Source: a virus. From it: 64,000 nucleotides of DNA. Below, piece by piece: positions 18,646 to 63,566 of this stretch (the stretch's first letter is position 1; each line of letters opens with the position of its first letter). The position numbers and the translations under genes were made by a program. The notes beneath the pieces are model-generated. The model saw nothing but the letters and a program-made list of their open reading frames with translations. It had not been told where the DNA came from and did no database searches. The stretch lies in IMG/VR virus record IMGVR_UViG_3300045988_177154, positions 96,001-160,000 of that record. One strand, written 5' to 3'.

Positions 18646-18647
18646 GA

Positions 18648-21103: not shown

Positions 21104-21122
21104 AAACTTATCTCATTCCTTG

Positions 21123-21151: not shown

Positions 21152-21181
21152 ATAACTACAAATCACAAAGGAATGAAAACT

Positions 21182-22351: not shown

Positions 22352-22841
22352 GATTATTAACAATATGAGATACACTGACACTCATGTTTATTTCTTTACG
22401 GACCAAGCTCCGTTTTCAAACTTTTATAAAACAAGATTTTATTATAAGGGATATAACTTGCAATTTTCTGAGCAAGGATTTATGATTGAGAAAGCATTGT
22501 TATTTGATAATAGCAAAGCGAGTTTAATCGCTTATGAAAAACACCCTTATCAAGTTAAAATGCTTGGCCGTAAAGTGAGAAATTACAATGAAGCAAAATG
22601 GAATGAAGTACGTTATGATAAAATGGTAGAAGTGCTTCGTGCTAAATTTTCTCAAAATGAAGATTTGAAACAAATCTTACTTGAAACAGGTGACCGTATT
22701 CTAGTCGAAGGCTCTCCTTATGATAAGATTTGGGGCGTAAAAATCGACTGGAAAGATGATAAAATTCTTGACGAAAAGAATTATAAAGGAATGAACTTGT
22801 TAGGTAAGGCACTTATGCAAGTCAGAAGCGAGCTTAAATAG
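22344..22841 (+). CDS. NADAR (YbiA/DUF1768) family ADP-ribose-processing protein
   Basis: Motifs FFTDQAPFSNFY, FSEQGFMIEKA, MLGRKVRNYNEAKW, LVEGSPYDKIWGV. The start overlaps the ligase stop by 8 nt. Confidence 0.85.
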   Translation: MDKIINNMRYTDTHVYFFTDQAPFSNFYKTRFYYKGYNLQFSEQGFMIEKALLFDNSKASLIAYEKHPYQVKMLGRKVRNYNEAKWNEVRYDKMVEVLRAKFSQNEDLKQILLETGDRILVEGSPYDKIWGVKIDWKDDKILDEKNYKGMNLLGKALMQVRSELK

Positions 22842-22945
22842 ATTTTGAGGGTCGATATATCGTCACTAGCGAAACGCTAAGATAGTTAAAACTGAATTTC
22901 GATAAATGTATCGACTTAACGAAAAAACAGCTCAGAAACAGTTTT
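22841..22945 (+). repeat. dispersed intergenic repeat, copy 4
   Basis: Contains atatatcgtcactagcgaaacgctaa and tcgataaatgtatcga. Followed by a terminator. Confidence 0.8.
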
Positions 22946-22946
22946 A

Positions 22947-22980
22947 AAGAGAGTTACTAAATAGAGCAACTCTCTTTTTC
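22947..22980 (+). terminator. intrinsic terminator
   Basis: agagagtt-actaaatagagc-aactctct plus a T-run. Confidence 0.75.
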
Positions 22981-22982
22981 AT

Positions 22983-23011
22983 TTGACTTTTTAGGTAAGA
23001 TATTGTAAAAT
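22983..23011 (+). promoter_or_regulatory. sigma-A type promoter
   Basis: TTGACT 22983-22988, 17-nt spacer, TG-adjacent TAAAAT 23006-23011. Confidence 0.6.
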
Positions 23012-23048
23012 AAAGATTACAATAAAAATAAAATAGTAAGGGATAAAT

Positions 23049-26497: not shown

Positions 26498-26502
26498 AAA
26501 AT

Positions 26503-26529
26503 AAAGGTAGCAATCAAATTGCTACCTTT
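26503..26529. terminator. bidirectional intrinsic terminator between convergent genes
   Basis: aaaggtagcaat-caa-attgctaccttt, flanked by an A-run and a T-run. Confidence 0.8.
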
Positions 26530-27522
26530 TTATAAGTTATCTCCTAATATAATTTCTTTTTTCTTTACTTCTATATTCTCACCAATATTATCATTCATTA
26601 AGAAGAAACAACTGGAACTAGGAAGCATGCCCTCTGTTGTGAATATATAATATTGATTATCATATTCATAAAATGATTTAATTTCACTTATTCTATTTTT
26701 ATAAACTACAAATAAGTTATAACATTCTAACTCTTGATTATATTGTAATCTTTCAAATGGCAAATTATCAATATTAACAAAATAATAATAAGATTGATTA
26801 GGTATTTTAGTTATAATTTTAAGCTCTAATCTTTTTAGTAACCTTTCTAATTCAATCTTTTTCAAATGTAATTTAACAATTTTCTTTTTCTCTTTATATA
26901 TACTTCTTGATTCACTGTCAAATTTTCTTAATATTTCTTTATAATTATTAAGTGCTTCATTTTCCTTTTTGGAAAATTCTATTAAATCATTAGTATATTC
27001 ATGAGTAAATCTTTCTATATGTTTTGATTTTAGATATGCCGGCACTTGATTGTATTTTCCATTCAATATGCTATCAATAGTCAAGCTGCCTGCTGTAATT
27101 TTCAAATTTGAAATTTTTCTAATATGACTAGCTAATTTTGCTTTGTGAGCTATGATAAGCACTCTCTTTTCATTCAATACATTTTCATATAATTTAGCAG
27201 CTTCTTGTCTAGCAAGCCATTCCTTTGAATGAAAATAACCCTTGACATAATTTTCATGTTTTTTTATAATAGTATCAATGGTAATTATTTTTTGCTCTAA
27301 ATCATTTATTTTATTTTTGAGTGATGTATATTCTTTTAAATCTTCATCATAACAATTAGTATAACCTAATTTCTCAAAAATAGTATCTTTGAAATATAGC
27401 AAATAAAATTTAGCTTCGGAATAAGAAGAAAAAAGAATATTATTAAAGACTAAATCATTATCAACTGAGTCTTTATAGATTTTAATGAGATTAGATTGTT
27501 TTTCTATGTAGTATTTATTCAT
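26530..27522 (-). CDS. hypothetical coiled-coil protein (330 aa)
   Basis: One of only three minus-strand genes. RBS aggagaag upstream on the minus strand. K/E-rich heptad-like segments. Confidence 0.7.
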   Translation of the reverse strand: MNKYYIEKQSNLIKIYKDSVDNDLVFNNILFSSYSEAKFYLLYFKDTIFEKLGYTNCYDEDLKEYTSLKNKINDLEQKIITIDTIIKKHENYVKGYFHSKEWLARQEAAKLYENVLNEKRVLIIAHKAKLASHIRKISNLKITAGSLTIDSILNGKYNQVPAYLKSKHIERFTHEYTNDLIEFSKKENEALNNYKEILRKFDSESRSIYKEKKKIVKLHLKKIELERLLKRLELKIITKIPNQSYYYFVNIDNLPFERLQYNQELECYNLFVVYKNRISEIKSFYEYDNQYYIFTTEGMLPSSSCFFLMNDNIGENIEVKKKEIILGDNL

Positions 27523-27622
27523 TCTATATTCTTCTCCTATAAAAAATGTTCATTAAGTTTGATATAATGTGTGATAACTGTAACAAAAAATCATAAAATC
27601 CAATAAAAAAGGAGGTGAAATT

Positions 27623-28840
27623 ATGTACTTAACTGAAAAAGAGATTATCTATTCAACTGATGAAAGATTTAACTTGATTAAAGATTTGTGCCATTTAAGC
27701 AAAAATCTTTATAATGCAAGTCTTTATGATGTTAGACAATATTACTTTGAAACTAAATCATACAGAACTTGGCAATCACAAGTGCCAATTTTTACTAAAA
27801 CTAAAAATACTGATTATTATGCACTTCAATCTCATGTTGCTAGTGAAGTGATAAAGCAAGTTGGTAGACAATTTATTAGTTTTTTCAATAATAAATCTAA
27901 CAAAAAGAAACGAATCCCTAAATACAAAGATAAAAATGGTTATAACGTTGTTACTTTCAATAATCGTGCAATTTCTAGGAAGATTGAGTTTGATGAGGAT
28001 AAACAACTTTATACTCATACTCTATGTAAGAAAAGTTATAATCTTAAAATTCAATCAACTAAATCAAATATTAAAATGGTAAAATTTGTTTATGATGAAG
28101 TTAATGACTTAATCAAGTGTTACAAGATTTATGAAGTTGAACAACCTAAGTTGAAAAATGATAATTCACGGTATTTCTCAATTGACCCAGGGTTAAATAA
28201 TATTGTTGCTATTTACAATAACATTGGAATCAGACCGTTATTATACAATGGCAGACCAATCAAAAGTATTAACCAATATTACAATAAAACAACTGCTAAA
28301 TTGAGGTCAGAATTGCCCACTAATATTAAATCATCTAAAAGATTAAAACAACTATCTTTAAAGAGAAATAACAAAATTGATTATGAGATGCACAAAATTT
28401 CAACTCATATTATCAATGAAGCCGTAAAAAACAACATTTCAAAAATCTTTATTGGCAATAACATTGGTTGGAAAAATGAAATTAACATTGGCAGAAGAAA
28501 TAACCAAAATTTTGTTAATATTCCTCATACAAAACTATTCAATCAATTGCTATATAAAGGGTCATTAAATGACATTGAAGTTATCTTTACAGAAGAGAGT
28601 TACACTTCAAGAGCAAGTTTCTTTGATAAAGATGAATTACCTATTTATGATGAAACTAGCAAGTATAAATTCTCTGGTAGAAGAATAAAACGTGGCTTAT
28701 ATAAAGATAGTAAAGGCAATATATGGAATGCTGATTTAAATGGAGCAGCCAATATTATGAGAAAATGTTCAGACAAAGCCTATAAAGGTATAAGAAAAAC
28801 CAAAGAAATGATGCGACAGCCAATTCTTATAACATTATAA
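27623..28840 (+). CDS. tnpB: TnpB-like RNA-guided endonuclease (IS605 OrfB family, cysteine-less zinc-finger variant)
   Basis: 405 aa; RBS aaggaggtg upstream. RuvC-I SIDPGLNN, RuvC-II FTEESYTS, RuvC-III NADLNGAANI. The segment between II and III (RASFFDKDEL...RIKRGLY) lacks the CxxC pairs. Confidence 0.85.
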   Translation: MYLTEKEIIYSTDERFNLIKDLCHLSKNLYNASLYDVRQYYFETKSYRTWQSQVPIFTKTKNTDYYALQSHVASEVIKQVGRQFISFFNNKSNKKKRIPKYKDKNGYNVVTFNNRAISRKIEFDEDKQLYTHTLCKKSYNLKIQSTKSNIKMVKFVYDEVNDLIKCYKIYEVEQPKLKNDNSRYFSIDPGLNNIVAIYNNIGIRPLLYNGRPIKSINQYYNKTTAKLRSELPTNIKSSKRLKQLSLKRNNKIDYEMHKISTHIINEAVKNNISKIFIGNNIGWKNEINIGRRNNQNFVNIPHTKLFNQLLYKGSLNDIEVIFTEESYTSRASFFDKDELPIYDETSKYKFSGRRIKRGLYKDSKGNIWNADLNGAANIMRKCSDKAYKGIRKTKEMMRQPILITL

Positions 28841-28960
28841 GTAGCACTCAATTTAATATAATGAGAGTGTAGAGGCATTTGTAGGTATGCCATTATGAGA
28901 AGTTAAATCTTAATTTAACGAGTCTATAAAAATCAAATCATATTTGATTAACCTATAAAG
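28841..28960 (+). ncRNA. putative omega/reRNA scaffold - IS right-end region
   Basis: Four consecutive hairpins directly after the tnpB stop: cactc/gagtg, ggcat/atgcc, gttaaat/atttaac and aatcaaat/atttgatt. Confidence 0.35.
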
Positions 28961-28986
28961 AATATCTAAAAAAGCGAGGAAAATAA

Positions 28987-29748
28987 ATGAAAAATAAGAA
29001 AAAAGCTGATTGGCTGGACTGGCTATTAAGAATTGCAATTGTACTAGGAATTATTGGAACAATTTATTTTAGCTATAGTCCAGCAAAAAATTATTTAACT
29101 GCTAAGCAAGAAGAAGCAAAGATTGAAGAAGTTGCTAAGAAAGTAGTAGAAAACACACACGATTACCCAGATGTAAAAGAAATTAAGAAATCAACAAATG
29201 AAGATGTAGTTGGTTGGATTAGAGTACCTGGTACTAATATTGATGAACCAATTTTACAAACTACTGACAATGAATTTTACTTAAATCACTCTTTAACTAA
29301 GGAAGAGTTAGATGTTGGAAGTATTTTCCTAGATGCTAAAGCAAATTCTAATTACGATAACAACTTGAATTTCGTATTCGGCCACAATACTTACATTGAT
29401 AATAAATTTACTCAATTAAGAAAATTCTCTGACCCAGAATTTAATAAAGCTAATAAAACTTTCTATATCTTTACTGATAAGAATGAAAAGATTACTTACA
29501 GAATTATCGGACAAGGTTTAATTCCACCAGTATTTCCTCTTTATACCGAAGATAATGTGAAATTAACCGTAGATAATTTAACCGAATACCAAAAACACCT
29601 GAAAGAATTTACAGATATTACTCAAGAAGATATTGAGGATATTCATGTTGACTCTAAACTTGCAATCTTAACTACTTGTTTATCTTACAACAATTCTGAC
29701 GGGCGACAAATTGTAGTAGGATTAGAAGTAAGTCGTGAAAAATATTAA
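28987..29748 (+). CDS. srtB: class B sortase
   Basis: N-terminal TM helix. Motifs VVGWIRVPGTNIDEPILQTTDNEFYLNH, FGHN, and the catalytic LAILTTC. Confidence 0.85.
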   Translation: MKNKKKADWLDWLLRIAIVLGIIGTIYFSYSPAKNYLTAKQEEAKIEEVAKKVVENTHDYPDVKEIKKSTNEDVVGWIRVPGTNIDEPILQTTDNEFYLNHSLTKEELDVGSIFLDAKANSNYDNNLNFVFGHNTYIDNKFTQLRKFSDPEFNKANKTFYIFTDKNEKITYRIIGQGLIPPVFPLYTEDNVKLTVDNLTEYQKHLKEFTDITQEDIEDIHVDSKLAILTTCLSYNNSDGRQIVVGLEVSREKY

Positions 29749-35223: not shown

Positions 35224-35255
35224 AGAGAGCATAGATTAAATTATGCTCTCTTTTT
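35224..35255 (+). terminator. intrinsic terminator
   Basis: agagagcata-gattaaat-tatgctctct plus a T-run. Confidence 0.8.
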
Positions 35256-35370
35256 AGCGTCAGTTTAAGCAACGCTAAACTGTTTTATTGAAAACATGAA
35301 GAATGAATCGAAAGTTATGCTAAGCTGTTTTAGAGCGCTGTTAGTGACAGTGTAGCAATGTCTAAAACAA
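35256..35370. repeat. dispersed intergenic repeat, copy 5 (degenerate/mosaic)
   Basis: Contains aagcaacgctaaa and taagctgtttt segments. The palindromes are decayed. Confidence 0.45.
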
Positions 35371-35458: not shown

Positions 35459-36025
35459 ATGATAGATTCAAAACTATTAAAACCTCGTAGTGGCACTAAC
35501 AAGTGCAAGTTATTTATTAAAGGTGACTGGAATGATGCTGATTATATTACAGAAGATACCTCTTTGACTATTGACCAACTGAAAGAACTATTGCCCTATT
35601 TTAGTATTTTGTTGGATTTATTCAAATTTGACAATAATTATAGACGCAAAACTCGTGATTACAGAATAGATATTAGAGATGAGTTTAATAGTGCTTTAGC
35701 TTTTTATCTTGGCTACAATAAGAACTTCTACCCACAACTTTTAGAGTTAAAGAAAAATAAAGAAATCCTTTCAGATAGACTAATTGATTTAGATGAAGAT
35801 AATTTTGAAGATGTGTATTATACAGTACTTCTGAATATTAAGGACTTTAGTTATGACGAATTTTTGCCTTATTATGAAGGTTGGGGCATTCATAACATTG
35901 TGGATATGTATATTGATTACAAAGGTAATAAATATGATGTGTTACCAGGCAAATCATTAGAAGCTTTTGCAGAACTTATGGATATGGAGTATGACAACTT
36001 CTCTTGGAGCCATGAAGATGAATAA
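35459..36025 (+). CDS. hypothetical protein (188 aa)
   Basis: RBS aaaagagat upstream. Acidic, with no motif recognised. Its stop overlaps the downstream HTH gene. Confidence 0.7.
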   Translation: MIDSKLLKPRSGTNKCKLFIKGDWNDADYITEDTSLTIDQLKELLPYFSILLDLFKFDNNYRRKTRDYRIDIRDEFNSALAFYLGYNKNFYPQLLELKKNKEILSDRLIDLDEDNFEDVYYTVLLNIKDFSYDEFLPYYEGWGIHNIVDMYIDYKGNKYDVLPGKSLEAFAELMDMEYDNFSWSHEDE

Positions 36026-36353
36026 AGAAATAGGAAATCGAATAAAAACAATGAGAGAAAATGCTTCATTAACTCAAGATGAAGTTGCTAAATATCTTGG
36101 TATAAGCAAAGATAAATATGCTGGAATAGAATTAGGAATATTTACACCAACGTTAGTAATTCTAAATCAATTATCTAAGCTCTTTAAAGTTTCGGTAGAA
36201 ACACTAACAGAAAATAGTAAAGAATCAAATTATGCTGATTTTAATATAACAAAAGAAACAAAAGATAAACTTGATATGATTGACTTATTTTATGCTAACA
36301 AAAATTTATATAAAAAATTGATTTATCAGAAGCAAGGAAAAGGAGTAAACTAA
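36018..36353 (+). CDS. XRE-family helix-turn-helix transcriptional regulator
   Basis: IGNRIKTMRENASLTQDEVAKYLGISKDKYAGIELG. Start at ATG 36018, 8 nt after ggag (ATG 36012 is also possible). Overlaps the upstream gene by 8 nt. Confidence 0.8.
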   Translation: MNKEIGNRIKTMRENASLTQDEVAKYLGISKDKYAGIELGIFTPTLVILNQLSKLFKVSVETLTENSKESNYADFNITKETKDKLDMIDLFYANKNLYKKLIYQKQGKGVN

Positions 36354-36371: not shown

Positions 36372-36379
36372 TTAGTGTT

Positions 36380-36495
36380 AAAATAAGCAACTCTAAGCTG
36401 TTTTATTGAATGGTCGATACATTTATAGAAAATCAGTTTTGACTGTATTACTGTTTCACTAGTGACGATATAACGACATTCAAAATCAGTTTCAG
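36380..36495 (-). repeat. dispersed intergenic repeat, copy 6
   Basis: taagctgttttattgaatggtcgatacatttat...gacgatataacgac...aaaatcagttt. Its reverse complement matches copy 4. Confidence 0.75.
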
Positions 36496-36502: not shown

Positions 36503-36530
36503 AAAAAGAGAGCAAATTGCTCTCTTTTAT
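36503..36530. terminator. bidirectional terminator (serves the minus-strand cca gene)
   Basis: agagagc-aaat-tgctctct, flanked by an A-run and a T-run. Confidence 0.75.
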
Positions 36531-37699
36531 TTTGTCAGTGATTCAATAAATTCTTTTTTAGATTTTCCTTGGCAAGCAAGTTTTTTAGATTGCAAAATCA
36601 GTTCACCAAATTCTTTTGATGGTTTAAATCCAAGTTGAATTAACTCTTGACCTGTAATGAATTGTGTTGAAATTATTTCTTGACTCACTTTAAACATAGA
36701 AGTCAATAATTTAATTTCAAATGTTGGCAAACCTAGCTTAATACCTTGAACAAGAATTGAGAATAAAGCAAATTCTTTAAATTTGATTTGCTCTGTTTTG
36801 AAAACAAATTCTCCAACTGTTTTTGAATCTTTAATAAATGATGAAGTAACTTCAGCCAAGAATTTGAATGATTTAATCATTTCAACAATTTCTGTTTGAT
36901 TTGTGATTGTTAATTCAGAACTTTCAAAGATGAAAGCAATAACAATTTCTGTTACTTTCTCTGGGCATAATTCCTTTGTAGCTTGAGTTAATTTATCAAT
37001 CAATTCAAGTTTTAAAGATGTTGGGAAGAAATCTGTAAGCACTCCCATTTTTTCTAATTTCTTAAAGAATACAGATGGTTTTTCTGATTTAGTAATTGCT
37101 TTGTGAGTTTCTTCAAAAATTCGTTCCATTGGAAGAATAGAGCAATCAAGAGTTTTAGAAATTTCAATTGTTTCAGGTGCAATTTCAAATCCAAAGCGAG
37201 AAGCAAATTGAGCTGCACGAAATACTCGTAATGAATCTTCAGCAAATTTTTCAGTACAATGTCTAATGACACCAGTTTCTAAATCTTTCATTCCACCAAA
37301 GAAGTCAAGAATTTTACCTGTTTGTGTGTCTTTCATTAGAGCGTTGATTGTAAAATCTCGGCGTTCAGCAGCTTTTGCTTCACCAATAAATGGGTCAACA
37401 ACAATTTCAAAGTCAGTATGTTTTTCTCCAATTTGTTTTTCTGTACGAGGGAAACTAAAGTCGAAATCAGTTCCGTCCATGAAAGCTTTGTAAACGCCAA
37501 ATGACTTGCCCACAAAGTCAATTTTAATACCAAGAGATTTAGCAACAGAAATAAAATCATCTTCTGTAATAAAATGAATTTCAATGTCAATGTCTTTGTT
37601 AGTTTTGCCTAACACTTCATCTCGGACACAACCACCTACATAATAAGTTTTTGCTCCCTTTTCTGATAATTTTTTAAGTAGTGTTTTTAATTTAGTCAT
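36527..37699 (-). CDS. cca: tRNA nucleotidyltransferase (CCA-adding enzyme)
   Basis: Pol-beta head YYVGGCVRDEVLGKTNKDIDIEIH; RRDFTINAL; EDSLRVFRAAQFASRFGF. Confidence 0.85.
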   Translation of the reverse strand: MTKLKTLLKKLSEKGAKTYYVGGCVRDEVLGKTNKDIDIEIHFITEDDFISVAKSLGIKIDFVGKSFGVYKAFMDGTDFDFSFPRTEKQIGEKHTDFEIVVDPFIGEAKAAERRDFTINALMKDTQTGKILDFFGGMKDLETGVIRHCTEKFAEDSLRVFRAAQFASRFGFEIAPETIEISKTLDCSILPMERIFEETHKAITKSEKPSVFFKKLEKMGVLTDFFPTSLKLELIDKLTQATKELCPEKVTEIVIAFIFESSELTITNQTEIVEMIKSFKFLAEVTSSFIKDSKTVGEFVFKTEQIKFKEFALFSILVQGIKLGLPTFEIKLLTSMFKVSQEIISTQFITGQELIQLGFKPSKEFGELILQSKKLACQGKSKKEFIESLTK

Positions 37700-37730
37700 A
37701 AGTTTTTCCTCTTTCGTTTTCTATATTTAT

Positions 37731-37759
37731 ATGATACAACAAAAATTTCACTTTGTCAA
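37731..37759 (-). promoter_or_regulatory. sigma-A type promoter for cca (minus strand)
   Basis: On the minus strand: TTGACA (plus-strand 37754-37759), 17-nt spacer, TATCAT (plus-strand 37731-37736). Confidence 0.65.
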
Positions 37760-37776
37760 CAATAAAATAAAAAATA

Positions 37777-37805
37777 TTTACATTTTTAAAATTTTTTGTT
37801 ATAAT
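37777..37805 (+). promoter_or_regulatory. sigma-A type promoter (divergent from the cca promoter)
   Basis: TTTACA 37777-37782, 17-nt spacer, TG-extended TATAAT 37800-37805. Confidence 0.65.
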
Positions 37806-37868
37806 GAATTTGTTCTCAAAAGGTGCTTAAAAAATTTGAATAAAATAAAATAAATTGGAGAACACAAA

Positions 37869-38663
37869 ATGAAAACACAAGATGTTATTGGAAACAAATA
37901 TAAAGCCTTGGAAAAGGAATATAGAGCAAAATTTGAAAGCAATAAATATTTAATTCTTAGATTAGATGGTAAAGCTTTCCACTCATTCACAAAAGGAATG
38001 AAAAAGCCATTTGATGAAAGATTATATGAAATCTTCAAAGAAACTTTGAAATACTTATGTGAAAATGTCGATGGCGTGAAAATTGGCTATTATCAATCAG
38101 ACGAAATCTCTTTGGTCTTATTTAATGATAGCCCTAAAATCAATAAACAATATTGGTTTGATAACAAAGTAGAAAAAATCCTTACTATTGCTACATCAAT
38201 CTGTACTGCTAAATTTAATTCTGAATATAACAAATTCGGACAATTTGGAGCTAAAGAGTTTGGCTTCTTCGATGCAAGAGGATTTGTAGTAGATACACTT
38301 GATGAAGTACAAGAATATTTAGAATGGAGAGTTAATGACTCTGTTAAAAATTCTGTTTATTTATATGCTTTTGATAAAGTGAAAGATAATAGCAATCCTA
38401 CTAAAGCTTTGATGAATATGTCTGTTAAAGAAAAGATTGATTTGTTAAAGAATGAATATGGAGTAGATTATTACAACTTTGAATCAAAATATAGAAAAGG
38501 AATTTTTTACTCTAAAGAGTATACTACATTCGTAGTTAAAAAAGAACAATACCCACAACATTTGAAAGAAGATAAGATTGTCACTAGAAGAAAATTCAAA
38601 TTACATGAAACTTTTGATAATGTTGCAGATATTGTTGACCATTTTAGAACGAAAGGTGAATAA
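37869..38663 (+). CDS. Thg1-like protein (tRNA-His guanylyltransferase / 3'-5' RNA polymerase family)
   Basis: Motifs LILRLDGKAFHSFTKG, YYQSDEISLV, FFDARGF, YLEWRVNDSVKNS. These match the Thg1/TLP palm-domain signatures. Confidence 0.8.
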   Translation: MKTQDVIGNKYKALEKEYRAKFESNKYLILRLDGKAFHSFTKGMKKPFDERLYEIFKETLKYLCENVDGVKIGYYQSDEISLVLFNDSPKINKQYWFDNKVEKILTIATSICTAKFNSEYNKFGQFGAKEFGFFDARGFVVDTLDEVQEYLEWRVNDSVKNSVYLYAFDKVKDNSNPTKALMNMSVKEKIDLLKNEYGVDYYNFESKYRKGIFYSKEYTTFVVKKEQYPQHLKEDKIVTRRKFKLHETFDNVADIVDHFRTKGE

Positions 38664-46039: not shown

Positions 46040-46202
46040 GTATCAAAATTTACTCAAAGAATTAGCAGAGGATAGAGATGAATCCTTAAAAGTGCTAGAG
46101 GAAGGAGTTGATTCCGAAACACATATAGAACTTAAAAAAGAAGTTTATGTTTTGAATAGCATAGTAGCAAGAATGGAAAGTTTTTTGAGGGAAGAACCGT
46201 GA
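46014..46202 (+). CDS. hypothetical protein (62 aa)
   Basis: Start at ATG 46014, after aaaggag. Overlaps the upstream gene by 26 nt. Confidence 0.55.
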   Translation: MTVNPYKIEYQNLLKELAEDRDESLKVLEEGVDSETHIELKKEVYVLNSIVARMESFLREEP

Positions 46203-46543
46203 AAATATTTTTGGACGATTTAAGACCAGTACCAGATGAATTTGATTTAGTATTTAGAAGCGGTAAAGCATTACTGAAATACTTAAAAGAAAATCCTAAT
46301 CAACATTATGAGTTAATCTCATTTGACCATGATTTAGGAGAAAACACTTTAACTGGCTATGATGTAGTAAAAGAAATTGTAGATGATTTAGACATTAACT
46401 TTACTTTTGATAGATTTCAATTTCACACTGCCAATGTAGTTGGATTTAGGAATATGTATTATTACTTAGTAAATGCTCAAATTTATGATTTATTCCCACC
46501 TGGTATTATAGATAAAAATTTAAAGACTTACACAAGTGTATAA
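46199..46543 (+). CDS. receiver-like domain protein (resembles the cyclic-phosphate-processing REC-like domain of RNA-repair contexts)
   Basis: GTG start overlapping the upstream stop. Motifs MKIFLDDLRPVP...ISFDHDLGENTLTGYDV. The family assignment is from memory. Confidence 0.35.
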   Translation: MKIFLDDLRPVPDEFDLVFRSGKALLKYLKENPNQHYELISFDHDLGENTLTGYDVVKEIVDDLDINFTFDRFQFHTANVVGFRNMYYYLVNAQIYDLFPPGIIDKNLKTYTSV

Positions 46544-46650
46544 CTGATTTTGAGGGTTGTTATATCGTCATATAAGCAACGCTAAAACAGTTAAAACTGA
46601 TTTTCGATAAATGTATCGAAAGTCTACAAAAGCAGCTTAAAACAGCTTAA
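46543..46650 (+). repeat. dispersed intergenic repeat, copy 7
   Basis: aactgattttgagggttgttatatcgtcatataagcaacgctaaaacagttaaaactgattttcgataaatgtatcga...cagcttaaaacagcttaaaa. Confidence 0.85.
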
Positions 46651-46718
46651 AATTACATTAGCAAATTTGCCAAAAAACTATATAAAGGAATAAAATTAGA
46701 AAGACAAAAGGCAACAAA

Positions 46719-47345
46719 ATGACTACGTTTAAAGAACTTACTAAAAAATATAACTGTACAGCAAAATGTCAATCACTTTTAGAGCGACTTGATATGGTAG
46801 AAGAAAAATTTGAGCAATTCAGTAACAAACATCAAATTGATGAACACTATGGATTAGACTTTGACTTTCTTTATGGGGACTTTACTTGGAAACCTAAATT
46901 AACTCAAAAACGCACTATTCAAGAGCATTTAGTAACTAATCACGAATTGATTGAAGAATTGAAAAATCTCTCTGATGAAGATTTTATTAAAGTGATGTCT
47001 ACTATGGAAAGTGATTTGCTAAAAGCATTTGCTTATCACATTGTTAATATTACTGGCCTGGCTATTTATTACAATTGCTTATTCAAAATAGACCAATTAA
47101 GAAATGTTAACCAAGACTTTAAAGAAACGATAAATTACAAGGACGAAGATATTACTATTTCAAAAACATATGATTACTTTGTTATGAATTACAAAGATTA
47201 TTTATGTATTCATTATTTTAAAAATGATAGAATGTTTTCATTTTCAAATCCAAGCCTCAAAACTAATGAGATTGAATGTCTTAAAGATTTTGAAGAGCAG
47301 GTTGAAAAAGATGTGGAGTTCTTGATTGAATTTTTGAATAGTTAA
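46719..47345 (+). CDS. hypothetical protein, paralog family C member 1 (short form)
   Basis: 208 aa. N-terminal MTTFKEL and C-terminal FLIEFLNS are shared with 47426..48715. Confidence 0.75.
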   Translation: MTTFKELTKKYNCTAKCQSLLERLDMVEEKFEQFSNKHQIDEHYGLDFDFLYGDFTWKPKLTQKRTIQEHLVTNHELIEELKNLSDEDFIKVMSTMESDLLKAFAYHIVNITGLAIYYNCLFKIDQLRNVNQDFKETINYKDEDITISKTYDYFVMNYKDYLCIHYFKNDRMFSFSNPSLKTNEIECLKDFEEQVEKDVEFLIEFLNS

Positions 47346-47372
47346 AGATAGCACTTTATGTGCTATTTTTAG
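47346..47372 (+). terminator. intrinsic terminator
   Basis: atagcac-tttat-gtgctat plus a T-run. Confidence 0.7.
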
Positions 47373-47425
47373 TTACTTTTTCAGAAAAAATATTATATAA
47401 TACAATAAAGAAAAGGAGTAAAAAT

Positions 47426-48715
47426 ATGACTACATTTACAGAATTACTTAGAGAAGCAAAAGATGAACCAAAAATAAAGATTAAAGAGCGGCCAATAAAT
47501 TTAGACTTACAAAAGACTATTGATTCATTAAATAAAATGTTTAATGAAAATTGGACTCCATTATTTGATGAAAATAAAGAATATGAATTATGGGATAAGT
47601 ATAATTCTCACATTTATTTTGGCAAAGATTATAAATATGTATTACTAGCAGGCAAAACACCAATCAACAAAGTTGAATTATTACCTGTAAATTGGCTTTT
47701 TATTAAGAAATTTCCTTACTCAACAAAGATTTTATATGTTATTGTTTTAAGAGAATTGGTACAACAAAAATTGAGTGCAAAATTTAGTGAAGCTATCTCA
47801 GTCTCTGGTTTAGCTGAAATCTTTGATGATGTACAAGATTTAGATTATTTAATAAAGAGCATGAATAATGTTTTAGGTGAGAATACACTTATTGAAAAAG
47901 ATAATAGTATTAAATTCAAAAATGAAATAATTTCAGTACCTAACTTACAACTAATGAAAGATTGTTATAATGTTAAAAATGAAGAGCTTTTTGATGCCAT
48001 TACTTCAAAACATTATGAAGAAATAAATTTAGATTTATTTAATATGCTCAATACACATGAGAAGATTTATCCTACTCTTATTAAATTACTTAACAAATTG
48101 AAAACTCTATATCTTGATGAAGTACACACTTATTACAAAGATGAATGTATTAAATATGCTGAAGCTGAATTTGAAATACTTTGTGAGGATTATTCTATCA
48201 ATCCAAACCATTATGTTTTATGTCCAGTTATCTTTAAGAATAAATTAACTTGGGATATAAGGTCTAAAAATAGACTTAAGCTTCCTACTTTTTATCTATT
48301 GAATCATTGGAGCACTCATAAAGCTATGAAATCAATTTCTGAATCTGCTTTTCGTGAAAGCTTGGGTTCTATGGTAAAACCTATTGAAGATGAAGCTCTG
48401 CGTTTAGAATGTAATTCTACAGTTGATAAGATTGTTAATGAATCATTAAAACCAATTAAGAAGCTTAATTTATCAATGAGAGATTTAGATAATGAAATTG
48501 ATTTTAACAGTTGTAAAATAAATGTAAAGACCAAAGACGGCAAACTTACTCTAAAATACAAAGACTATACTTTCCATGTACCTTATTACTCTCCAAATAG
48601 TGTTCACACTTATTTTGAAAAAGAAAATGGAATTGAAGATAATAAAATTTGGGCAAAAACAAAAGAAGATATTCAAACAGTTGCTGATTTGTTCATTGAA
48701 TTTTTAAATAGTTAA
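47426..48715 (+). CDS. hypothetical protein, paralog family C member 2
   Basis: Start at ATG 47426, after aaaaggag. Contains WTPLFDENKEYELW and C-terminal LFIEFLNS. Confidence 0.8.
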   Translation: MTTFTELLREAKDEPKIKIKERPINLDLQKTIDSLNKMFNENWTPLFDENKEYELWDKYNSHIYFGKDYKYVLLAGKTPINKVELLPVNWLFIKKFPYSTKILYVIVLRELVQQKLSAKFSEAISVSGLAEIFDDVQDLDYLIKSMNNVLGENTLIEKDNSIKFKNEIISVPNLQLMKDCYNVKNEELFDAITSKHYEEINLDLFNMLNTHEKIYPTLIKLLNKLKTLYLDEVHTYYKDECIKYAEAEFEILCEDYSINPNHYVLCPVIFKNKLTWDIRSKNRLKLPTFYLLNHWSTHKAMKSISESAFRESLGSMVKPIEDEALRLECNSTVDKIVNESLKPIKKLNLSMRDLDNEIDFNSCKINVKTKDGKLTLKYKDYTFHVPYYSPNSVHTYFEKENGIEDNKIWAKTKEDIQTVADLFIEFLNS

Positions 48716-48748
48716 AAGATAGCACAAATTTGTGCTATTTTTTATTTT
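48716..48748 (+). terminator. intrinsic terminator
   Basis: atagcacaaa-tt-tgtgctat plus a T-run. Confidence 0.75.
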
Positions 48749-48752
48749 TCTA

Positions 48753-48781
48753 TTGACAAACTAAAAATTATATAATATAAT
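48753..48781 (+). promoter_or_regulatory. sigma-A type promoter
   Basis: TTGACA 48753-48758, 17-nt spacer, TATAAT 48776-48781. Confidence 0.7.
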
Positions 48782-48810
48782 AGACTTATACAATGAAAGG
48801 AAGATAAAAA

Positions 48811-49176
48811 ATGGAAAGATTACATAGAACTATTTACTTAATCGAAGAAAACCCACTTGTAAAAAGCTTTGGAAACGTTGAAGATGTTTTGAAAAGTATT
48901 TATGGTGGGCGAAAAGTTAAAACAATTACAACAAAAAGAACTGATAAGAATTTTGATTTTGGCCATGGTGGAAGAAATCAATCTTATTATCTAACAGACC
49001 AAGAAACTCGCACATACGAAATTGCTGTTACTCCAACTGATAATTATATTATTAAAGTAACAGGTTACAATCTTCAAACTTGTGACCGTCATTTTAAGGT
49101 GGACGAATTTGAAGTACTTGGTATGTCAATAGTTAAAGTGTTAAAACGTTCAATGAAAACTGCTGGAATCGTTTAA
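48811..49176 (+). CDS. hypothetical protein (121 aa)
   Basis: RBS aaaggaag upstream. Confidence 0.7.
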   Translation: MERLHRTIYLIEENPLVKSFGNVEDVLKSIYGGRKVKTITTKRTDKNFDFGHGGRNQSYYLTDQETRTYEIAVTPTDNYIIKVTGYNLQTCDRHFKVDEFEVLGMSIVKVLKRSMKTAGIV

Positions 49177-49218
49177 AACATTACTTAATTAAATTTTAAA
49201 AATAGAAAGAATAAAGAA

Positions 49219-50562
49219 ATGAAAACATTAAAAGAACAACAAGTAACATCACTATCAGAATTGCTAAAAAATGCTAAAAAAGCAGAACAAACAGTTGAAC
49301 AAGATAATAATAAAGAAACTGCTGTTGACAGAGCAGCTAAAAATCTCAACTCATTGTTTAAAAAATATTGGACGCCCTTGTTTGATGAAAATAAAGAATA
49401 TCCAATGTGGAATGATGGTATCTTAATTTATTTTGGACAAGGAATGAACGATTATTTCAGGGTTAAACAAACTTCTATTAACAAAATAGTACTTGTTAAA
49501 TGCCCTGCAAGTAACAGAGTGACTTACCCAGATACAATAGCTAAATCTTACAATAAAATTCTTTTGATGATTATTACTCTTCATATGTACAAAGACTTTA
49601 AAAAGGAAGTTGATTTTTGTGAAATTCTCAAAGAGAGAAATATTAGGCATGCTATCAACAGTTTTCAAGATTTAATTGACCTAATTGGATTTGTTTCTTA
49701 TGAAACACTTAATGAAAATCATAAAAACAATACTATTGAAATTAAAAATTATAAGATTAAAATTTCTCCAACATTAGACTTCGCTAAGAATTATTATTAT
49801 AAATTATATTCTAGTAATATAAAGAATATTCGACAATATGTGAATGAAAATAGTGATTTTTCTGAAATTCTATTTGAGCGTTTAATGACTCACCAAGATA
49901 ATTTTGCAGAACTTAAAGAAACTATTAACCAGTTAGTTCAAGTTTATTCAGAAATGTGTGATATGCTTTTACCAAAATCAGATATTCAACAAATTAAAAA
50001 ACAATTTGATGTTCTCTGTAAAAAATATGATTTAGATAGCAATAATTATCGTGTTGCAGTAACTAACTGGCATAATTATAAATTTATCTTTTCTGTTGCA
50101 GAACGAGGTAAATGGGAATATGGAACTTTTGAGGAATACTTAAAAAATAATTCTAATTACCGTACTTTAAAAGCTAAAGAAAAAGGGAATACTACTTTTG
50201 ATTATCAAGATTTAGAAAACAAAATCAAAGCTCAAGCTTTTGAAAATTATGCAAAAGAATTTGCTCAAAAATTTTACGAAAAAAATAAATCTGAAATAGA
50301 AGAGCTTAAAAAAGTAAAATTTCTTCATAAGAGAAATTTAAAATTCAAAAATGAAGAACTCAGCATTTTTATTAACCAAGAATACTCTAGACTTCAAATT
50401 ACTTATAACAATTTTAAATTTTATAGAGTTGCTGGTAATATATACAATTTTACAATTGACTCTTTCACTGTTCATGATAAAATAATGGAATTATCATTTG
50501 AGGAAATTCAAAAACGCTTAGAATCTTCTGCTGAAGTAATTGAGAAATTTATAAATAGTTAA
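49219..50562 (+). CDS. hypothetical protein, paralog family C member 3
   Basis: 447 aa. Contains WTPLFDENKEYPMW and C-terminal VIEKFINS. Confidence 0.8.
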   Translation: MKTLKEQQVTSLSELLKNAKKAEQTVEQDNNKETAVDRAAKNLNSLFKKYWTPLFDENKEYPMWNDGILIYFGQGMNDYFRVKQTSINKIVLVKCPASNRVTYPDTIAKSYNKILLMIITLHMYKDFKKEVDFCEILKERNIRHAINSFQDLIDLIGFVSYETLNENHKNNTIEIKNYKIKISPTLDFAKNYYYKLYSSNIKNIRQYVNENSDFSEILFERLMTHQDNFAELKETINQLVQVYSEMCDMLLPKSDIQQIKKQFDVLCKKYDLDSNNYRVAVTNWHNYKFIFSVAERGKWEYGTFEEYLKNNSNYRTLKAKEKGNTTFDYQDLENKIKAQAFENYAKEFAQKFYEKNKSEIEELKKVKFLHKRNLKFKNEELSIFINQEYSRLQITYNNFKFYRVAGNIYNFTIDSFTVHDKIMELSFEEIQKRLESSAEVIEKFINS

Positions 50563-53454: not shown

Positions 53455-54330
53455 GTGGAAATAAATACAAAAACAGAATTATTAAGAGAAATTGAAGCAT
53501 TTACTAAAGCTCTTTATGAATATAGAAATATTGGCCCACTAATAATTTCTGAAAAAGAATATAATCCTTATTATGTTGAGAATGGTTATTTGAAACGAGC
53601 TGATTATAGTGGTGTTATTCTTGATGAAAATGCTTTCCTGGCTTTTTATGCAGTATTTTTTGATTCAATCAAATTAGATTCTAATGCAGGGAAAGTTTCT
53701 GATAGTGATTACTTCAATACTCTTTATTTTAAATATAAAGCAAAATATGAAAAAGAATCAAGTAATTTAGACCCATTTATGCAGATTGTCAGAAGTAATC
53801 AAGAAGATAAAAATAAATCAGTTGAAGATGAAGAAGCATATAGTGCAGTTGAAGGTTTTTTAGACCTTGTACTTAGACGAAAAATTCGTAAAAACATCAA
53901 ATCCAAAACTTCAAAAGATAAATCTCTGGCTCAAATAGTAAAAAAGGAAGATGATAACAAAGATTACAGGACAATAAGTTTTGTGGTAAGTTCTTTGTTA
54001 TCTTTCTCAACTGTAGTTTTGTGGACGTTTACTGGCTTTAATCCAATGACTGTAGCTTTTATCATTGTTATTGTTTTATGTTTATCCTCTTATACTATCT
54101 CTTGTTTTACTGTAAATAAATTAAGTAAATCAGAAAAAGAAGAATTAAAACAACTACCTAAAGATTTTAAAAAATATATCCTTGGTGATTACACTACTTT
54201 TAACGAAGAATTTTTCTCATATCAAATCTCAAGTTATATTGATAGTTTCTTCAAAGATAGTGTAGTTTACCATTATGTAAAAGAAAAATATACAAAAATA
54301 GAAAGTGGAAACAGTATTACAAATGAATAA
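53455..54330 (+). CDS. membrane protein, paralog family D member 1
   Basis: GTG start after gaaagga. N-terminal ELLREIEAFTKAL, two central TM helices, C-terminal YHYVKEKYTKIESGNSITNE. Confidence 0.75.
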   Translation: MEINTKTELLREIEAFTKALYEYRNIGPLIISEKEYNPYYVENGYLKRADYSGVILDENAFLAFYAVFFDSIKLDSNAGKVSDSDYFNTLYFKYKAKYEKESSNLDPFMQIVRSNQEDKNKSVEDEEAYSAVEGFLDLVLRRKIRKNIKSKTSKDKSLAQIVKKEDDNKDYRTISFVVSSLLSFSTVVLWTFTGFNPMTVAFIIVIVLCLSSYTISCFTVNKLSKSEKEELKQLPKDFKKYILGDYTTFNEEFFSYQISSYIDSFFKDSVVYHYVKEKYTKIESGNSITNE

Positions 54331-55180
54331 AAGAGAATTACTTTACGAAATTGATAAGTTTGATGAAGCATTACAAACTCATAAATACACTGAAGAGTTG
54401 ATTCCAATAGACAAGTATTATCCTTACAAGCTAGATGAAAGAGTTCTTGTAAGAAGTGATTTTGAAAGCAGTATCTGGGTTGAGGATTCATTCCTTATGT
54501 TTTATCAAACATTTTTTGATAAAATCAAGCTGAATGAAAATGCTCAACAAGTATCAAAGAGTAAATATTTTAATACGCTTTATCATGATTATCTTAAAGA
54601 AATAAAACAAGATACGTTTTTACAGTCACTTGGCGAAAACAAAAAGAATAAAAATGAAGCTCAGCCACTTGTAATTTTAAACTTCTTTTCCAATTTGCTT
54701 ATGTACAAAGGTCATGAAATTCAAGAAAAGTTAAAAAGTAAAGCTTCTCCTAAAAAACAATTGTTCAAAGTGATAAGTAGAAAGTATAATTATGAGGAAA
54801 CTATGCAACTAATTGGAATGATTGATGTTGCAATGTTAATAGCAATTTTTCTAACAATGTTAGTAAACATTGCTAATAAAGATAATTTTCTTGAATGGCT
54901 AGTACCAGTAACATTTATGGCTGTTATTCCTATAAATTTAGGGCTCCTTATATATTGGTTTACACATAAAACAACTAAAGAGGAAAATAACGAATTAAAA
55001 GACTTACCTGCTAATTTTAAATCATATGTTCACGGTGGGTTAATAATAACTAGTGAAGATTTCTTCAGTCCTATTACTTTTGATTATCTCGATTCATTCT
55101 TTAATGATAGTGAAGTTTATTTGTACTTGAAAAAGAAATACACCAAAATTGAAAGAAAGGATAATATAGCAAATGAATAA
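54323..55180 (+). CDS. membrane protein, paralog family D member 2
   Basis: ATG 54323 lies in the overlap AAATGAATAA with the upstream stop. ELLYEIDKFDEAL, two TM helices, YLYLKKKYTKIERKDNIANE. Confidence 0.75.
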   Translation: MNKRELLYEIDKFDEALQTHKYTEELIPIDKYYPYKLDERVLVRSDFESSIWVEDSFLMFYQTFFDKIKLNENAQQVSKSKYFNTLYHDYLKEIKQDTFLQSLGENKKNKNEAQPLVILNFFSNLLMYKGHEIQEKLKSKASPKKQLFKVISRKYNYEETMQLIGMIDVAMLIAIFLTMLVNIANKDNFLEWLVPVTFMAVIPINLGLLIYWFTHKTTKEENNELKDLPANFKSYVHGGLIITSEDFFSPITFDYLDSFFNDSEVYLYLKKKYTKIERKDNIANE

Positions 55181-56012
55181 GAATGAATTGATTAGCGAAA
55201 TATATGAATTTGAAAAAGAATTAGCACGAAATTATGATAGGAAATTATCCACTAGAGATAAATTCTCACCTTATTTTATAAATAAAGGCGTATTAGTTAG
55301 ACAAGTGTTTGATGGCCATGAAAATGTAGAAATAAATGCTAGAGATTTAAAAACAACTGAAGAGTTAATAACTTTTTATGAGAATTTCTTTAAATTAGTA
55401 GATAATGTGTATGAGAACACCTATAAATCATTAAAGGATAATTGTCAAAACTCAGATAGTAAATATTTCAACAAATTATCGTGCTTCTTAGCAGGCGGTT
55501 ATGACTCTTTTGAGAGAATCTATAACAATCATAACTCAGGTCAGACAGACTCATTATCTTTCATATTCAAAAAAAGATTTCAAAATGATTTTATTTATGA
55601 AGTAGATATAAAAGGGAAGACTTTGAGTAATTGGTATAAATTTGAATATAATAAATATTTTATAGCGTTTATGGGCGGTCTCATAGGTTTTATTGTGACT
55701 GGATTTTTCTATTTCTTATTTAATAATTTGATTGGAACATTAGTTTCAGGTGGTGTCTTTTCTTTTATTGTTGCTTTTGACATTATAAAAGCACAATACA
55801 CACTTAGAACCCATCATATAACTAAAATTGAAGAAGAGTTCTTTAGTAAAATTCATGACATATCTTCACAAGAACTTCTTAAATATATTAAACTTTGCAA
55901 ATACGAAAAGTATTTCAATGATTATTTTAAAGGTGATGTTCTGTATGAAGAATTAAAACGAAGATATAATATTAGCACTACTAATTCTGAAAATGAAATT
56001 GTAAATGGTTAG
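55173..56012 (+). CDS. membrane protein, paralog family D member 3
   Basis: Same AAATGAATAA overlap junction. ELISEIYEFEKEL, TM helices, YEELKRRYNISTTNSENEIVNG. Confidence 0.75.
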   Translation: MNKNELISEIYEFEKELARNYDRKLSTRDKFSPYFINKGVLVRQVFDGHENVEINARDLKTTEELITFYENFFKLVDNVYENTYKSLKDNCQNSDSKYFNKLSCFLAGGYDSFERIYNNHNSGQTDSLSFIFKKRFQNDFIYEVDIKGKTLSNWYKFEYNKYFIAFMGGLIGFIVTGFFYFLFNNLIGTLVSGGVFSFIVAFDIIKAQYTLRTHHITKIEEEFFSKIHDISSQELLKYIKLCKYEKYFNDYFKGDVLYEELKRRYNISTTNSENEIVNG

Positions 56013-56018
56013 AACTTA

Positions 56019-56047
56019 TTGACTTTATTTCAGCTTTAATATATAAT
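56019..56047 (+). promoter_or_regulatory. sigma-A type promoter
   Basis: TTGACT 56019-56024, 17-nt spacer, TATAAT 56042-56047. Confidence 0.7.
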
Positions 56048-56090
56048 ATAAACTATAGAAGTTAACAAGAAAGTAGGATTAAGGTGTTAA

Positions 56091-56891
56091 ATGAATAAAA
56101 GTGAATTGATTCATGAAATATATGAATTTGATAAAGAATTAACAGATTATGGACTGAAGAAAGAAATTAAATTACATAACAATTATTATTTGTGCTTTGG
56201 AACGTTACACCGTAAAATTGGTAATAATACAATCTTTGTTTCAGATTTGACCACATATAATAAAGAAAAAGAATTGTTAGCTTTTTATGAAACTTTTTTC
56301 CATGATTTAGATACATTAGATGAATACCGTGATGGAAGTTCTTACTTTGAGAAAGTGCTCAATTATATCAAAAGGAAAACATCTTATGATAAATTTGAAT
56401 TAGTTCATTCTGGCTTTGATAGTAGAAATGATTACAATAGCATTGAGTATCACTTCCAAGATAGCTACAATAAAGAATTTTTACCAGAAAGCAAAACTCA
56501 AAAAGAGGCATTAGAAAATAGACACAAATTATTCAAATTATACAATATTCTCTATTGGTCAGTTCTTGCAATTTTTGTTGCTTCGTGCGTTGTAGTAATC
56601 ACTTTTCTTTTTGGAAATATAAATGTTTTCTACAATCCATTCTTTACATTACTATTGATTTTGGGGATTTCATTGAAAATTTCTAGCAATCATGTCTATG
56701 AAAAGGTTGAAAAATATAGAACTATAGCTGACGATATAACTTATAAAATTGGAGATTTTGCAAAATTAAATCAAAGAGATTATTATAAAGACATTTATCA
56801 ATTCTATAAAGATGATTTATTCTTCAAAGAACTTCAAAAACAATATAATATAACTACAACACCAACAGGTAATCAAATCATAGGAGATTAA
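56091..56891 (+). CDS. membrane protein, paralog family D member 4
   Basis: ELIHEIYEFDKEL, two TM helices, FKELQKQYNITTTPTGNQIIGD. Confidence 0.75.
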   Translation: MNKSELIHEIYEFDKELTDYGLKKEIKLHNNYYLCFGTLHRKIGNNTIFVSDLTTYNKEKELLAFYETFFHDLDTLDEYRDGSSYFEKVLNYIKRKTSYDKFELVHSGFDSRNDYNSIEYHFQDSYNKEFLPESKTQKEALENRHKLFKLYNILYWSVLAIFVASCVVVITFLFGNINVFYNPFFTLLLILGISLKISSNHVYEKVEKYRTIADDITYKIGDFAKLNQRDYYKDIYQFYKDDLFFKELQKQYNITTTPTGNQIIGD

Positions 56892-59830: not shown

Positions 59831-59945
59831 ACTGCAGTCTGAGCTGTTTTATCAATGGTTAGGGTTAACTATCAAAAATAACTCCAAACTGTTGCTAAAA
59901 CAGCTTTTCAGCGTTTAGCAACAATACTAATAACGATATACAAAA
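59831..59945 (-). repeat. dispersed intergenic repeat, copy 8 (degenerate)
   Basis: Starts gagctgttttatcaatgg and ends aacgatatacaaaat, like copy 6. The centre is diverged. Confidence 0.5.
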
Positions 59946-63076: not shown

Positions 63077-63430
63077 ATGGACGATAAAAACATTTTACTT
63101 ATAGAGATTATAAGTACTTTATTCGTGGCTAAACTCGTTGAACAAAAAATGTTAAATAGAACAGAGATTAAAGATTCATTTGAAGCTTTAGTTGATTATC
63201 AAAATGAATTATATGGAGCAGATTATGAAATTATATTAGATGAAAAAGATTGCTCGTTAAATCTACATTCATATTTAGATAGCATTAAAATCACTGCTAG
63301 ACTCATCAACCAGTTAATTCCCTTAACTCAAAAAGAAGAAGATAAGCACTTCCTTAGACAAATTAAATGGAATTTTGCTGACGAAGTTAAGTTTATTAAA
63401 AGCACCTTAAAAAATCAATTGGGTGAATAA
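63077..63430 (+). CDS. hypothetical protein (117 aa)
   Basis: RBS aaagggt upstream. Confidence 0.7.
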   Translation: MDDKNILLIEIISTLFVAKLVEQKMLNRTEIKDSFEALVDYQNELYGADYEIILDEKDCSLNLHSYLDSIKITARLINQLIPLTQKEEDKHFLRQIKWNFADEVKFIKSTLKNQLGE

Positions 63431-63545
63431 CGCTAAATCAGTTTAAGGGTTGTTATATCGTCATATAAGCAACGCTAAAACAGTTAAAATTAACTTTCGA
63501 TACATTTATCGACTTTGAAGTAAAACAGCTCAAAACAGCTTAAAC
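63431..63545 (+). repeat. dispersed intergenic repeat, copy 9
   Basis: Contains gttgttatatcgtcatataagcaacgctaaaacagttaaaa, tcgatacatttatcga and cagctcaaaacagcttaaa. Confidence 0.85.
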
Positions 63546-63566
63546 TTAAATAGAAAAGAGAATAAA

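Follow-up and report, generated by a model that had tools for sequence, protein, structure and literature searches.

A dispersed 116-bp repeat in the intergenic DNA of jumbo phages

The intergenic regions of one clade of jumbo phages carry a dispersed repeat of 116 bp, parts of which appear from sequence comparison to be held by purifying selection at each site. We tentatively propose, with a confidence that falls a little short of even, that the element is a cis-acting double-stranded-DNA site of fixed geometry, to which protein would bind at several positions. The repeat was traced in the window (the whole 64,000-nt stretch of viral DNA analyzed here) with an nhmmer profile built from six copies, which returned six strong matches (E 1e-35 to 1e-40) and two degenerate but still significant minus-strand ones (E 3e-7 and 2e-5). 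Unguided repeat finding in the window led to the same family, in both orientations and at 70-87% identity over 104-142 nt. The original prediction of a dispersed intergenic repeat in both orientations is therefore real, although its length is 116 nt rather than about 110 nt, and the nine copies then listed resolve into six strong ones, two that are degenerate but significant, and one (59831-59945) that is not significant in the window with the six-copy profile (E 0.24). The two degenerate minus-strand copies correspond to a site that had been called a mosaic (35256-35370) and to one placed at 8649-8752. A 30-mer reported as verbatim in three copies has three exact occurrences in the window and one more with three mismatches, against 0 expected by chance.

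Copies of the element in the window, with nhmmer E values
9275-9390, minus strand: fills the gap between two plus-strand tandem paralogous genes; E 7e-36
17415-17530, plus strand: between a GreA homologue (Pfam), whose stop codon falls within the copy, and the LCP/LytR gene; E 1.6e-40
22835-22950, plus strand: after the NADAR gene; E 8e-36
36378-36493, minus strand: between the convergent XRE-type HTH gene (35967-36353) and CCA-adding enzyme gene (36527-37699, minus strand) (Pfam); E 3e-36
46540-46655, plus strand: the copy under study, with an orthologous copy in L104; E 3e-37
63433-63548, plus strand: 2 nt past the stop of ORF 63077-63430; E 5e-35
35263-35370 (profile match 35246-35363), minus strand: degenerate copy after the NrdD gene; E 3e-7
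8653-8756, minus strand: degenerate copy after a tandem paralogue; E 2e-5 (six-copy model), E 0.014 (family model)
59831-59945, minus strand: doubtful relic, sequence read by eye; E 0.24 over 19 nt

Parts of the copy under study
46541-46543: TAA stop of the upstream cREC_REC gene, inside the element
46559-46570: block B, GTTATATCGTCA
46571-46578: variable spacer
46579-46599: block C
46604-46619: palindrome, TCGATAAATGTATCGA
46629-46652: the AAAGCAGCTTAAAACAGCTTAAAA block

Orthologous copies were found in related loci (L numbers) for the other strong copies as well: in L055 and L089 for 9275-9390, in L002, L089 and the more distant L130 for 17415-17530, and in L104, L005 and L073 for 36378-36493, which has a terminator hairpin on either side. 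The copy at 22835-22950, in which the TAG stop of the NADAR gene stands in for the CTG of the AAACTGATTTT block, has orthologues in L025, L084 and L130, and in L133 one that has diverged; downstream of the window copy lie a terminator hairpin and a sigma-70-like promoter. The degenerate copy beside NrdD is common to relatives and is better kept in L005 (L005:6237-6344, E 3.5e-9), and the relic at 59831-59945 retains B-, C- and E-like blocks in the correct order. A unit of gene plus element is apparently duplicated at 8094-8756 and 8751-9390, and the copy at 8653-8756 probably arose by such a duplication.

Anatomy of the element

An alignment of 65-70 distinct copies gave a constant length of 116 +/- 2 nt with almost no indels, and resolved the element into ten parts, in which the spacers between blocks have a fixed length and a sequence that is free to change.

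Parts of the element, in order
1: (T)GCTCAAACTGATTTT
2: variable heptamer
3: block B, GTTATATCGTCA, nearly invariant
4: V1, hypervariable octamer
5: block C, ACGCTAAAACAGTTAAAACTG
6: block D, TTTCGATAAATGTATCGAC, which holds the perfect palindrome
7: V2, second hypervariable octamer
8: block E, AAAACAGCTTAGA
9: V3, three variable bases
10: block F, GCTTA

The whole can be described as two diverged direct half-repeats, each about 52 bp long, or some five helical turns, with AAACTGATTTT at positions 6 and 59, TATCG at 28 and 79, and AAACAG at 50 and 95; the internal repeat and the phasing of its halves carry a p of about 0.02. Both half-units contain AAACTGATTTT and AAAACAG(C)TT, with a TATCG half-site between them; the second has this half-site in doubled form, as the perfect palindrome TCGATA-AATG-TATCGA, and the terminus of the element reads GCTTA-N5-GCTTA.

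The palindrome TCGATA-N4-TATCGA, part of the original description, is present in all six strong window copies, with a single mismatch in one of them. Across 565 kb of family DNA the 16-bp palindrome occurs 74 times within elements and 0 times elsewhere, and the idea of a separate operator outside the elements was dropped, none having been found in those 565 kb. In 63 copies its center reads AATG, and in four it reads CATT, the exact reverse complement. These four lie at four different sites, and their orthologues carry AATG; one is the window copy at 63433-63548, whose L087 orthologue has AATG. Single-change intermediates of the center were absent, even though the search pattern would have allowed them, and in L047 a central segment of 23 nt is inverted. 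From the CATT centers at four sites, the missing intermediates and the L047 inversion, we conclude that the palindrome center flips repeatedly and independently, and that its direction is immaterial. Two other ideas were set aside: TCGA is not unusual (0.74 of expectation), which removes a restriction-site explanation, and the stop codons of small ORFs within the element are not conserved.

Distribution and probable host

Scanned for the core TTTCKATAMATKTATCGA, IMG/VR yielded at least 106 loci, with a full element in about 72 of the matches listed. The full elements among the matches listed all fall in one group of related large phage contigs (260-324 kb) and fragments, with at least 21 copies in a contig of 280,646 bp; the window is collinear with related contigs at 85-93% identity. 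Genes for a DNA polymerase, a helicase and a type II topoisomerase are present in relatives. When the 19-mer core was searched in 185,579 bacterial species genomes, it turned up 19 times, each a single hit in an unrelated bacterium that we read as chance; these genomes contained 0 full elements, and no Streptococcus among them had the 19-mer. The element was likewise unmatched in INPHARED cultured phages, PLSDB plasmids and Rfam. Because it is absent from bacteria, cultured phages and plasmids and confined to related contigs, the element is specific to one clade of jumbo phages, contrary to the concern raised at the outset that it might be a known repeat of the host, carried along passively.

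The host of these phages is probably an oral Streptococcus, as judged from two features of their sequence. Among cellular genes, the closest homologues of LCP in the window come from Streptococcus peroris (57% identity) and S. anginosus (53%), and GATC sites number 0 in the 64-kb window against 145 expected, and 0 in the more distant relatives L130-L135. The absence of GATC suggests escape from a GATC-specific host restriction system.

Several other features of the window are of note in their own right. Host-like envelope and transcription genes occupy 16928-29748, namely those for GreA, LCP/LytR (57% identical to Streptococcus), a PASTA-domain protein, a class A penicillin-binding protein and a sortase, and in distant relatives extra glycosyltransferase, GbpC-like and CatAgl genes are inserted in this block. 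A set of genes for RNA repair and tRNA maintenance (T4-type RNA ligase, NADAR, CCA-adding enzyme, Thg1-like enzyme and cREC_REC, the last a cyclic-phosphate-processing receiver domain) lies at 21173-22841, 36527-38663 and 46199-46543. A full-length GOLLD RNA (RF02032, 156 bits) lies at 4689-5142 inside a 17-gene tRNA cluster (79-5465) and includes an insert resembling a tRNA (4756-4830), for which the anticodon call has 4 bases; another tRNA gene, for tRNA-Cys, is found at 31144. Tandem paralogous families of unknown function extend over 5715-11510, 47360-50562 and 53455-56891.

Genomic context and orientation

The elements are always intergenic, and often touch or contain a stop codon at -7 to +2, or otherwise follow a terminator hairpin. 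In the window, the prediction that copies lie directly after stop codons holds for five of the six strong ones, which touch or contain the stop of a neighbor; the sixth lies between two convergent terminators. Among 68 copies scored against their flanking genes, 37 are co-oriented, 18 opposite, 13 convergent and 0 divergent, and manual grouping of these into about 25 distinct sites gave counts of about 11, 10, 4 and 0, respectively. Orientation relative to flanking genes is about even, and no polarity along the genome was seen in the three large contigs (262, 281 and 315 kb), all of which are mixed. Elements also occupy polycistronic gaps, in either orientation and without obvious effect on the neighboring genes. 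Reading of the copies and RNAalifold revealed neither a conserved promoter (-35/-10) nor a GC-rich hairpin with a T-run inside the element.

A separate motif, (T/A)GGAATAATATAACTA(T)A, is highly conserved, with 49 sites in the family loci and occurrences at 32588, 32835 and 60939 of the window. It usually lies just past a terminator and lacks a -35 box, and looks like a phage-specific class of promoter. Coupling between the element and the promoter-like motif GGAATAATATAACTA was considered and rejected, as most of the 49 motifs are not beside an element and only three or four adjoin one.

Conservation of the element across genomes

In the syntenic stretches of the window, the six strong copies are all common to three or four genomes, as is one degenerate copy. 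Selection was assessed in 14 independent orthologous pairs whose flanks have diverged by 14.3%. In these pairs block B changed at 3 of 168 positions (1.8%, P 2e-8), block E at 10 of 182 (P 1e-4) and block F at 2 of 70, whereas the V1 and V2 spacers each changed at 39 of 112 (35%). Block C, at 18%, is not more conserved than the flanks, and the value for block D (4 of 266) is biased since that block was used to fetch the copies. For the same reason, the conservation of the palindrome among relatives is partly a matter of sample selection; the palindrome is nonetheless intact or nearly so in 6/6 strong window copies. The contrast of conserved blocks with free spacers indicates, at the level of sequence, purifying selection on specific blocks at each site after genome divergence, unlike what would be expected of decaying or purely selfish copies. 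Frequent gene conversion could inflate this apparent conservation.

Deeper relatives, among them L130 and L133, were reached through LCP homologues that are 74% and 63% identical. The CCA-adding enzyme, tried as another route to distant relatives, reached only an unrelated phage of 44% GC. L130 has elements at two of the window's sites, after GreA and after NADAR. The elements of L133 have diverged: a changed left half is common to two copies, indicating concerted change, and the half-site is the imperfect TATCAA. L133 carries an element after LCP, at a site that is empty in both the window and L130, and has none directly after GreA. A scan of IMG/VR with the L133-type core found nothing.

Recombination at the element

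An alternative to protein binding is that the element serves mainly as a recombination module, similar to the PeSLs of T4-type phages, and is kept for cassette swaps between genome positions and co-infecting relatives. The flanks of L015 and L090 are 99.3% identical, yet 10 differences fall within 35 nt of the element, and the L090 version of that tract best matches a paralogous copy; such a tract in near-identical flanks, with a paralogue match, is the signature of gene conversion, and sequence comparison thus indicates that copies exchange short patches in this way. Close orthologues show 116 differences where 57 would be expected from their flanks, or twice expectation. Several differences in gene content also begin at or within about 20 nt of element edges. 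For example, a 5.4-kb glycosyltransferase block in L130, which the window lacks, starts within about 20 nt of an element, an 86-codon ORF sits right after the NADAR element of L130, the window gene at 46719-47345 lies right after the copy under study and is missing from L104, and between L130 and L133 homology resumes inside an element, placing the breakpoint within it. Synteny breaks were 2.4 times commoner beside elements than at control points 0.9-1.5 kb away, an enrichment to be read with the reservation that the controls were not limited to intergenic DNA and the comparisons are not independent.

The proposal that the elements are recombination hotspots is thus partly supported, by a clear conversion tract and by breakpoints at element edges. 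As the main function, however, we consider recombination unlikely. The element, unlike PeSLs, has neither promoter nor terminator, and recombination alone leaves unexplained why some blocks are invariant while the spacers run free. Any part that it plays in cassette exchange is most simply explained as a side effect of dispersed homology, and as such would be compatible with the protein-binding explanation.

A signal at the RNA level

The element might instead act in RNA, as a processing, stability or termination signal at gene ends in the manner of REP, ERIC or Correia sequences, or as a small RNA gene. Its placement is what one would expect of such a signal, in that it is always downstream of at least one gene end and falls between divergent genes in 0 of 68 cases. 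In addition, the central hairpin could form on either strand, and single copies fold better than shuffled sequences in four of six cases (z -3 to -4.5). The consensus obtained with RNAalifold, however, contains only the 6-bp AT-rich palindrome hairpin (-4.3 kcal/mol) and 0 compensatory changes; changes in the half-sites are uncompensated, as in the TATCAA of L133. This hairpin is not followed by a T-run, the element holds no conserved promoter, and orientation relative to transcription is about even. In the variable segments, complementarity within a copy is no higher than between copies over all pairs. Rfam gave no match at the gathering threshold or at E up to 10, only noise from neighboring terminators. 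The 10-bp hairpin GTTGTTATAT/ATATAAGCAAC that had been assigned to the consensus belongs to one subfamily only, and in 65 distinct copies 65.1% of cells pair, against 65.3% after shuffling, without covariation. With no covariation, a weak sole common hairpin, random orientation and no Rfam match, the suggested role in RNA processing or stability is not supported, and we judge an RNA-level function to be quite improbable. A signal read by its sequence in single-stranded DNA or RNA would likewise be compatible with conservation that lacks covariation.

A mobile element

A further possibility is that the family is a selfish non-autonomous transposable element (a MITE or PATE), either still moving or mobile until recently, in which case the blocks would be transposase sites. 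The family is multi-copy, about 116 nt long, without an ORF, present in both orientations and strictly intergenic, and its copies abut or supply stop codons. The site after LCP is occupied only in L133, where the GreA junction is without an element, and MITEs do occur in viruses, though rarely (PMC11602168), in one survey in 0.01% of viral sequences (PMC11602168). The same genomes also harbor an element that is demonstrably mobile, a TnpB-only insertion sequence of the IS200/IS605 type. It lies at 27545-28953 of the window, is absent from that position in IMG/VR 3300007220_000167 and occupies other sites in relatives, and this polymorphism of position points to recent movement within these phage genomes.

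Other observations speak against mobility of the repeat itself. Target-site duplications, which the original prediction had proposed as a check, were found at no offset (offsets -12 to +12, k 2 to 9, 32 site representatives), the only matches being to internal conserved ATTTT. The ends of the consensus, at first described as MITE-like inverted repeats, are not significantly so (local score 8 vs 5.96 +/- 1.2 in shuffles, p about 0.10). Every site for which both flanks were found in another relative was filled, with a gap of 113-119 nt, although this comparison is biased towards filled sites as the loci were fetched by element presence; empty sites were not seen in the close clade, and differences appear only with the distant L133. 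Neither solo halves nor a longer element with the same ends occurred in the 565 kb of family DNA and the window. A PATE-like link to the resident TnpB insertion sequence was rejected because its ends are not similar to the element. Moreover, the repeat is absent from host-range genomes, and purifying selection per site after divergence would be unexpected for dead or selfish copies. With its sites filled, and with no target-site duplications, significant terminal repeats or partner, the repeat does not look like a mobile element now spreading in this genome, as had been suggested, and we regard present or recent mobility as quite improbable. A transposon-like origin of the family is nevertheless plausible.

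A putative binding site for phage proteins

We return, then, to protein binding, which is the best supported of the four roles originally listed, the binding protein itself being putative. Sites for protein are favored by the combination of block-wise selection, fixed spacing, independence of orientation, a perfect palindrome that occurs only in elements, and absence from hosts. We postulate that one or more sequence-specific proteins would bind the conserved blocks, perhaps with a dimer on the palindrome, while the iterated AAAAC(A/T)G and GCTTA motifs would take additional protomers or another protein, and that these contacts would be held in helical register. A defined nucleoprotein complex would thereby form at about 20-30 intergenic positions in the genome. 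Such complexes may take part in genome organization or segregation, in replication or topoisomerase action, or in global control of expression; a function of this kind is inferred from selection alone, as the elements lie in gaps without obvious effect on their neighbors. The elements were probably established by an ancient, transposon-like (MITE-like) spread into short gaps beside stop codons and are now fixed in position. As the main dispersed homology of the genome, the copies would also give rise, as a by-product, to patches of gene conversion and to cassette junctions.

Two candidates for a reader of the element can be named. The XRE-type HTH gene at 35967-36353 lies between a degenerate element (35263-35370) and an intact one (36378-36493), and on this circumstantial ground its product is a candidate for reading the palindrome. 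The type II topoisomerase of these phages is a candidate element-binding protein as well.

It is tempting to go further, and to speculate that the 20-30 composite sites form a genome-wide platform for a dedicated phage protein or complex, one that co-evolves with its sites between lineages, with the sites doubling as junctions for host-derived cassettes. We consider this possible but doubtful. If true, such a platform would serve to organize, segregate or replicate a genome of about 300 kb, or to regulate it globally, and would represent a new kind of viral cis-acting system. Dispersed repeats are rare in phages, and those that are understood, such as stoperators and PeSLs, have revealed control or reshuffling of whole genomes. 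The present family is confined to a single clade of uncultured phages with genomes of about 300 kb, shows measurable selection at each site, and belongs to phages that are probably common in the human mouth. Its 16-bp palindrome and fixed flanking blocks offer a handle for finding the trans-acting factor, and the element allows a test of whether huge phages need dedicated sites for genome organization. It also marks points at which host-like cell-wall genes are gained and lost.

Comparison with known repeats and cis-acting sites

The element invites comparison with several known families. Like the Correia elements of Neisseria and the RUP elements of S. pneumoniae, it belongs to the size range of about 100-150 nt, lacks an ORF, and is dispersed in intergenic copies of both orientations, often by gene ends. 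It differs from these MITEs in having no target-site duplications, significant terminal repeats, insertion polymorphism in the close clade or partner insertion sequence, and in being absent from bacterial genomes and under block-wise selection at each site. The streptococcal repeats BOX, RUP and SPRITE are set apart by the missing 19-mer in Streptococcus, rather than by a comparison of their consensus sequences.

The REP/BIME and ERIC sequences of enterobacteria are extragenic palindromic units that bind gyrase and IHF and stabilize mRNA. The element is similarly extragenic, multi-copy, partly palindromic and placed after genes, and may be a DNA site for protein as they are, although its binding is putative. 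It differs in that its only common palindrome is short and AT-rich (6+6 bp), in that its conserved sequence is mostly non-palindromic, and in that it is phage-borne rather than chromosomal; a RAYT-type gene was not seen in the sequence examined. Integron attC sites were rejected, given the mixed orientation, a density of about one element per 8-13 kb, and the lack of a GTTRRRY/RYYYAAC pair at the consensus ends as read by eye. Resemblances to CodY, CiaR and WalR sites, parS, DnaA boxes, the plasmid ssoA CS-6 motif, attC and the type II-A CRISPR repeat/tracrRNA were, on reading of the sequences, partial, in variable segments or of chance length.

Among mobile genomes, the phage-plasmid N15 has four centromere sites and RK2 has KorB operators, in each case dispersed palindromic sites with one dimeric reader protein. 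The element likewise places a palindrome of roughly 16 bp at separate points of a mobile genome. Its palindrome, however, sits in a much larger conserved array, its copy number is higher, and any counterpart of ParB or KorB is putative.

Closer in setting are two systems of phages. Stoperators are about 13 bp long and oriented with transcription. In Cluster A mycobacteriophages they form many copies of one protein-binding sequence across intergenic regions, as short asymmetric sites for the immunity repressor (PMC9283540, PMC6550527). The element shares with them its many dispersed sites in a phage genome, and differs in being 116 bp long, composite and independent of orientation, with a reader protein that is putative. 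The PeSLs of T4-type phages, which combine an early promoter with a stem-loop terminator, flank variable genes (PMC2839356, PMC4122927). Our element is likewise a repeated intergenic motif of a large phage at junctions of insertion, deletion and replacement, but is without a promoter or terminator. The element resembles MITEs, REP/BIME sequences, stoperators and PeSLs without the defining features of any one of them, and we therefore class it as a dispersed intergenic repeat or cis-acting site.
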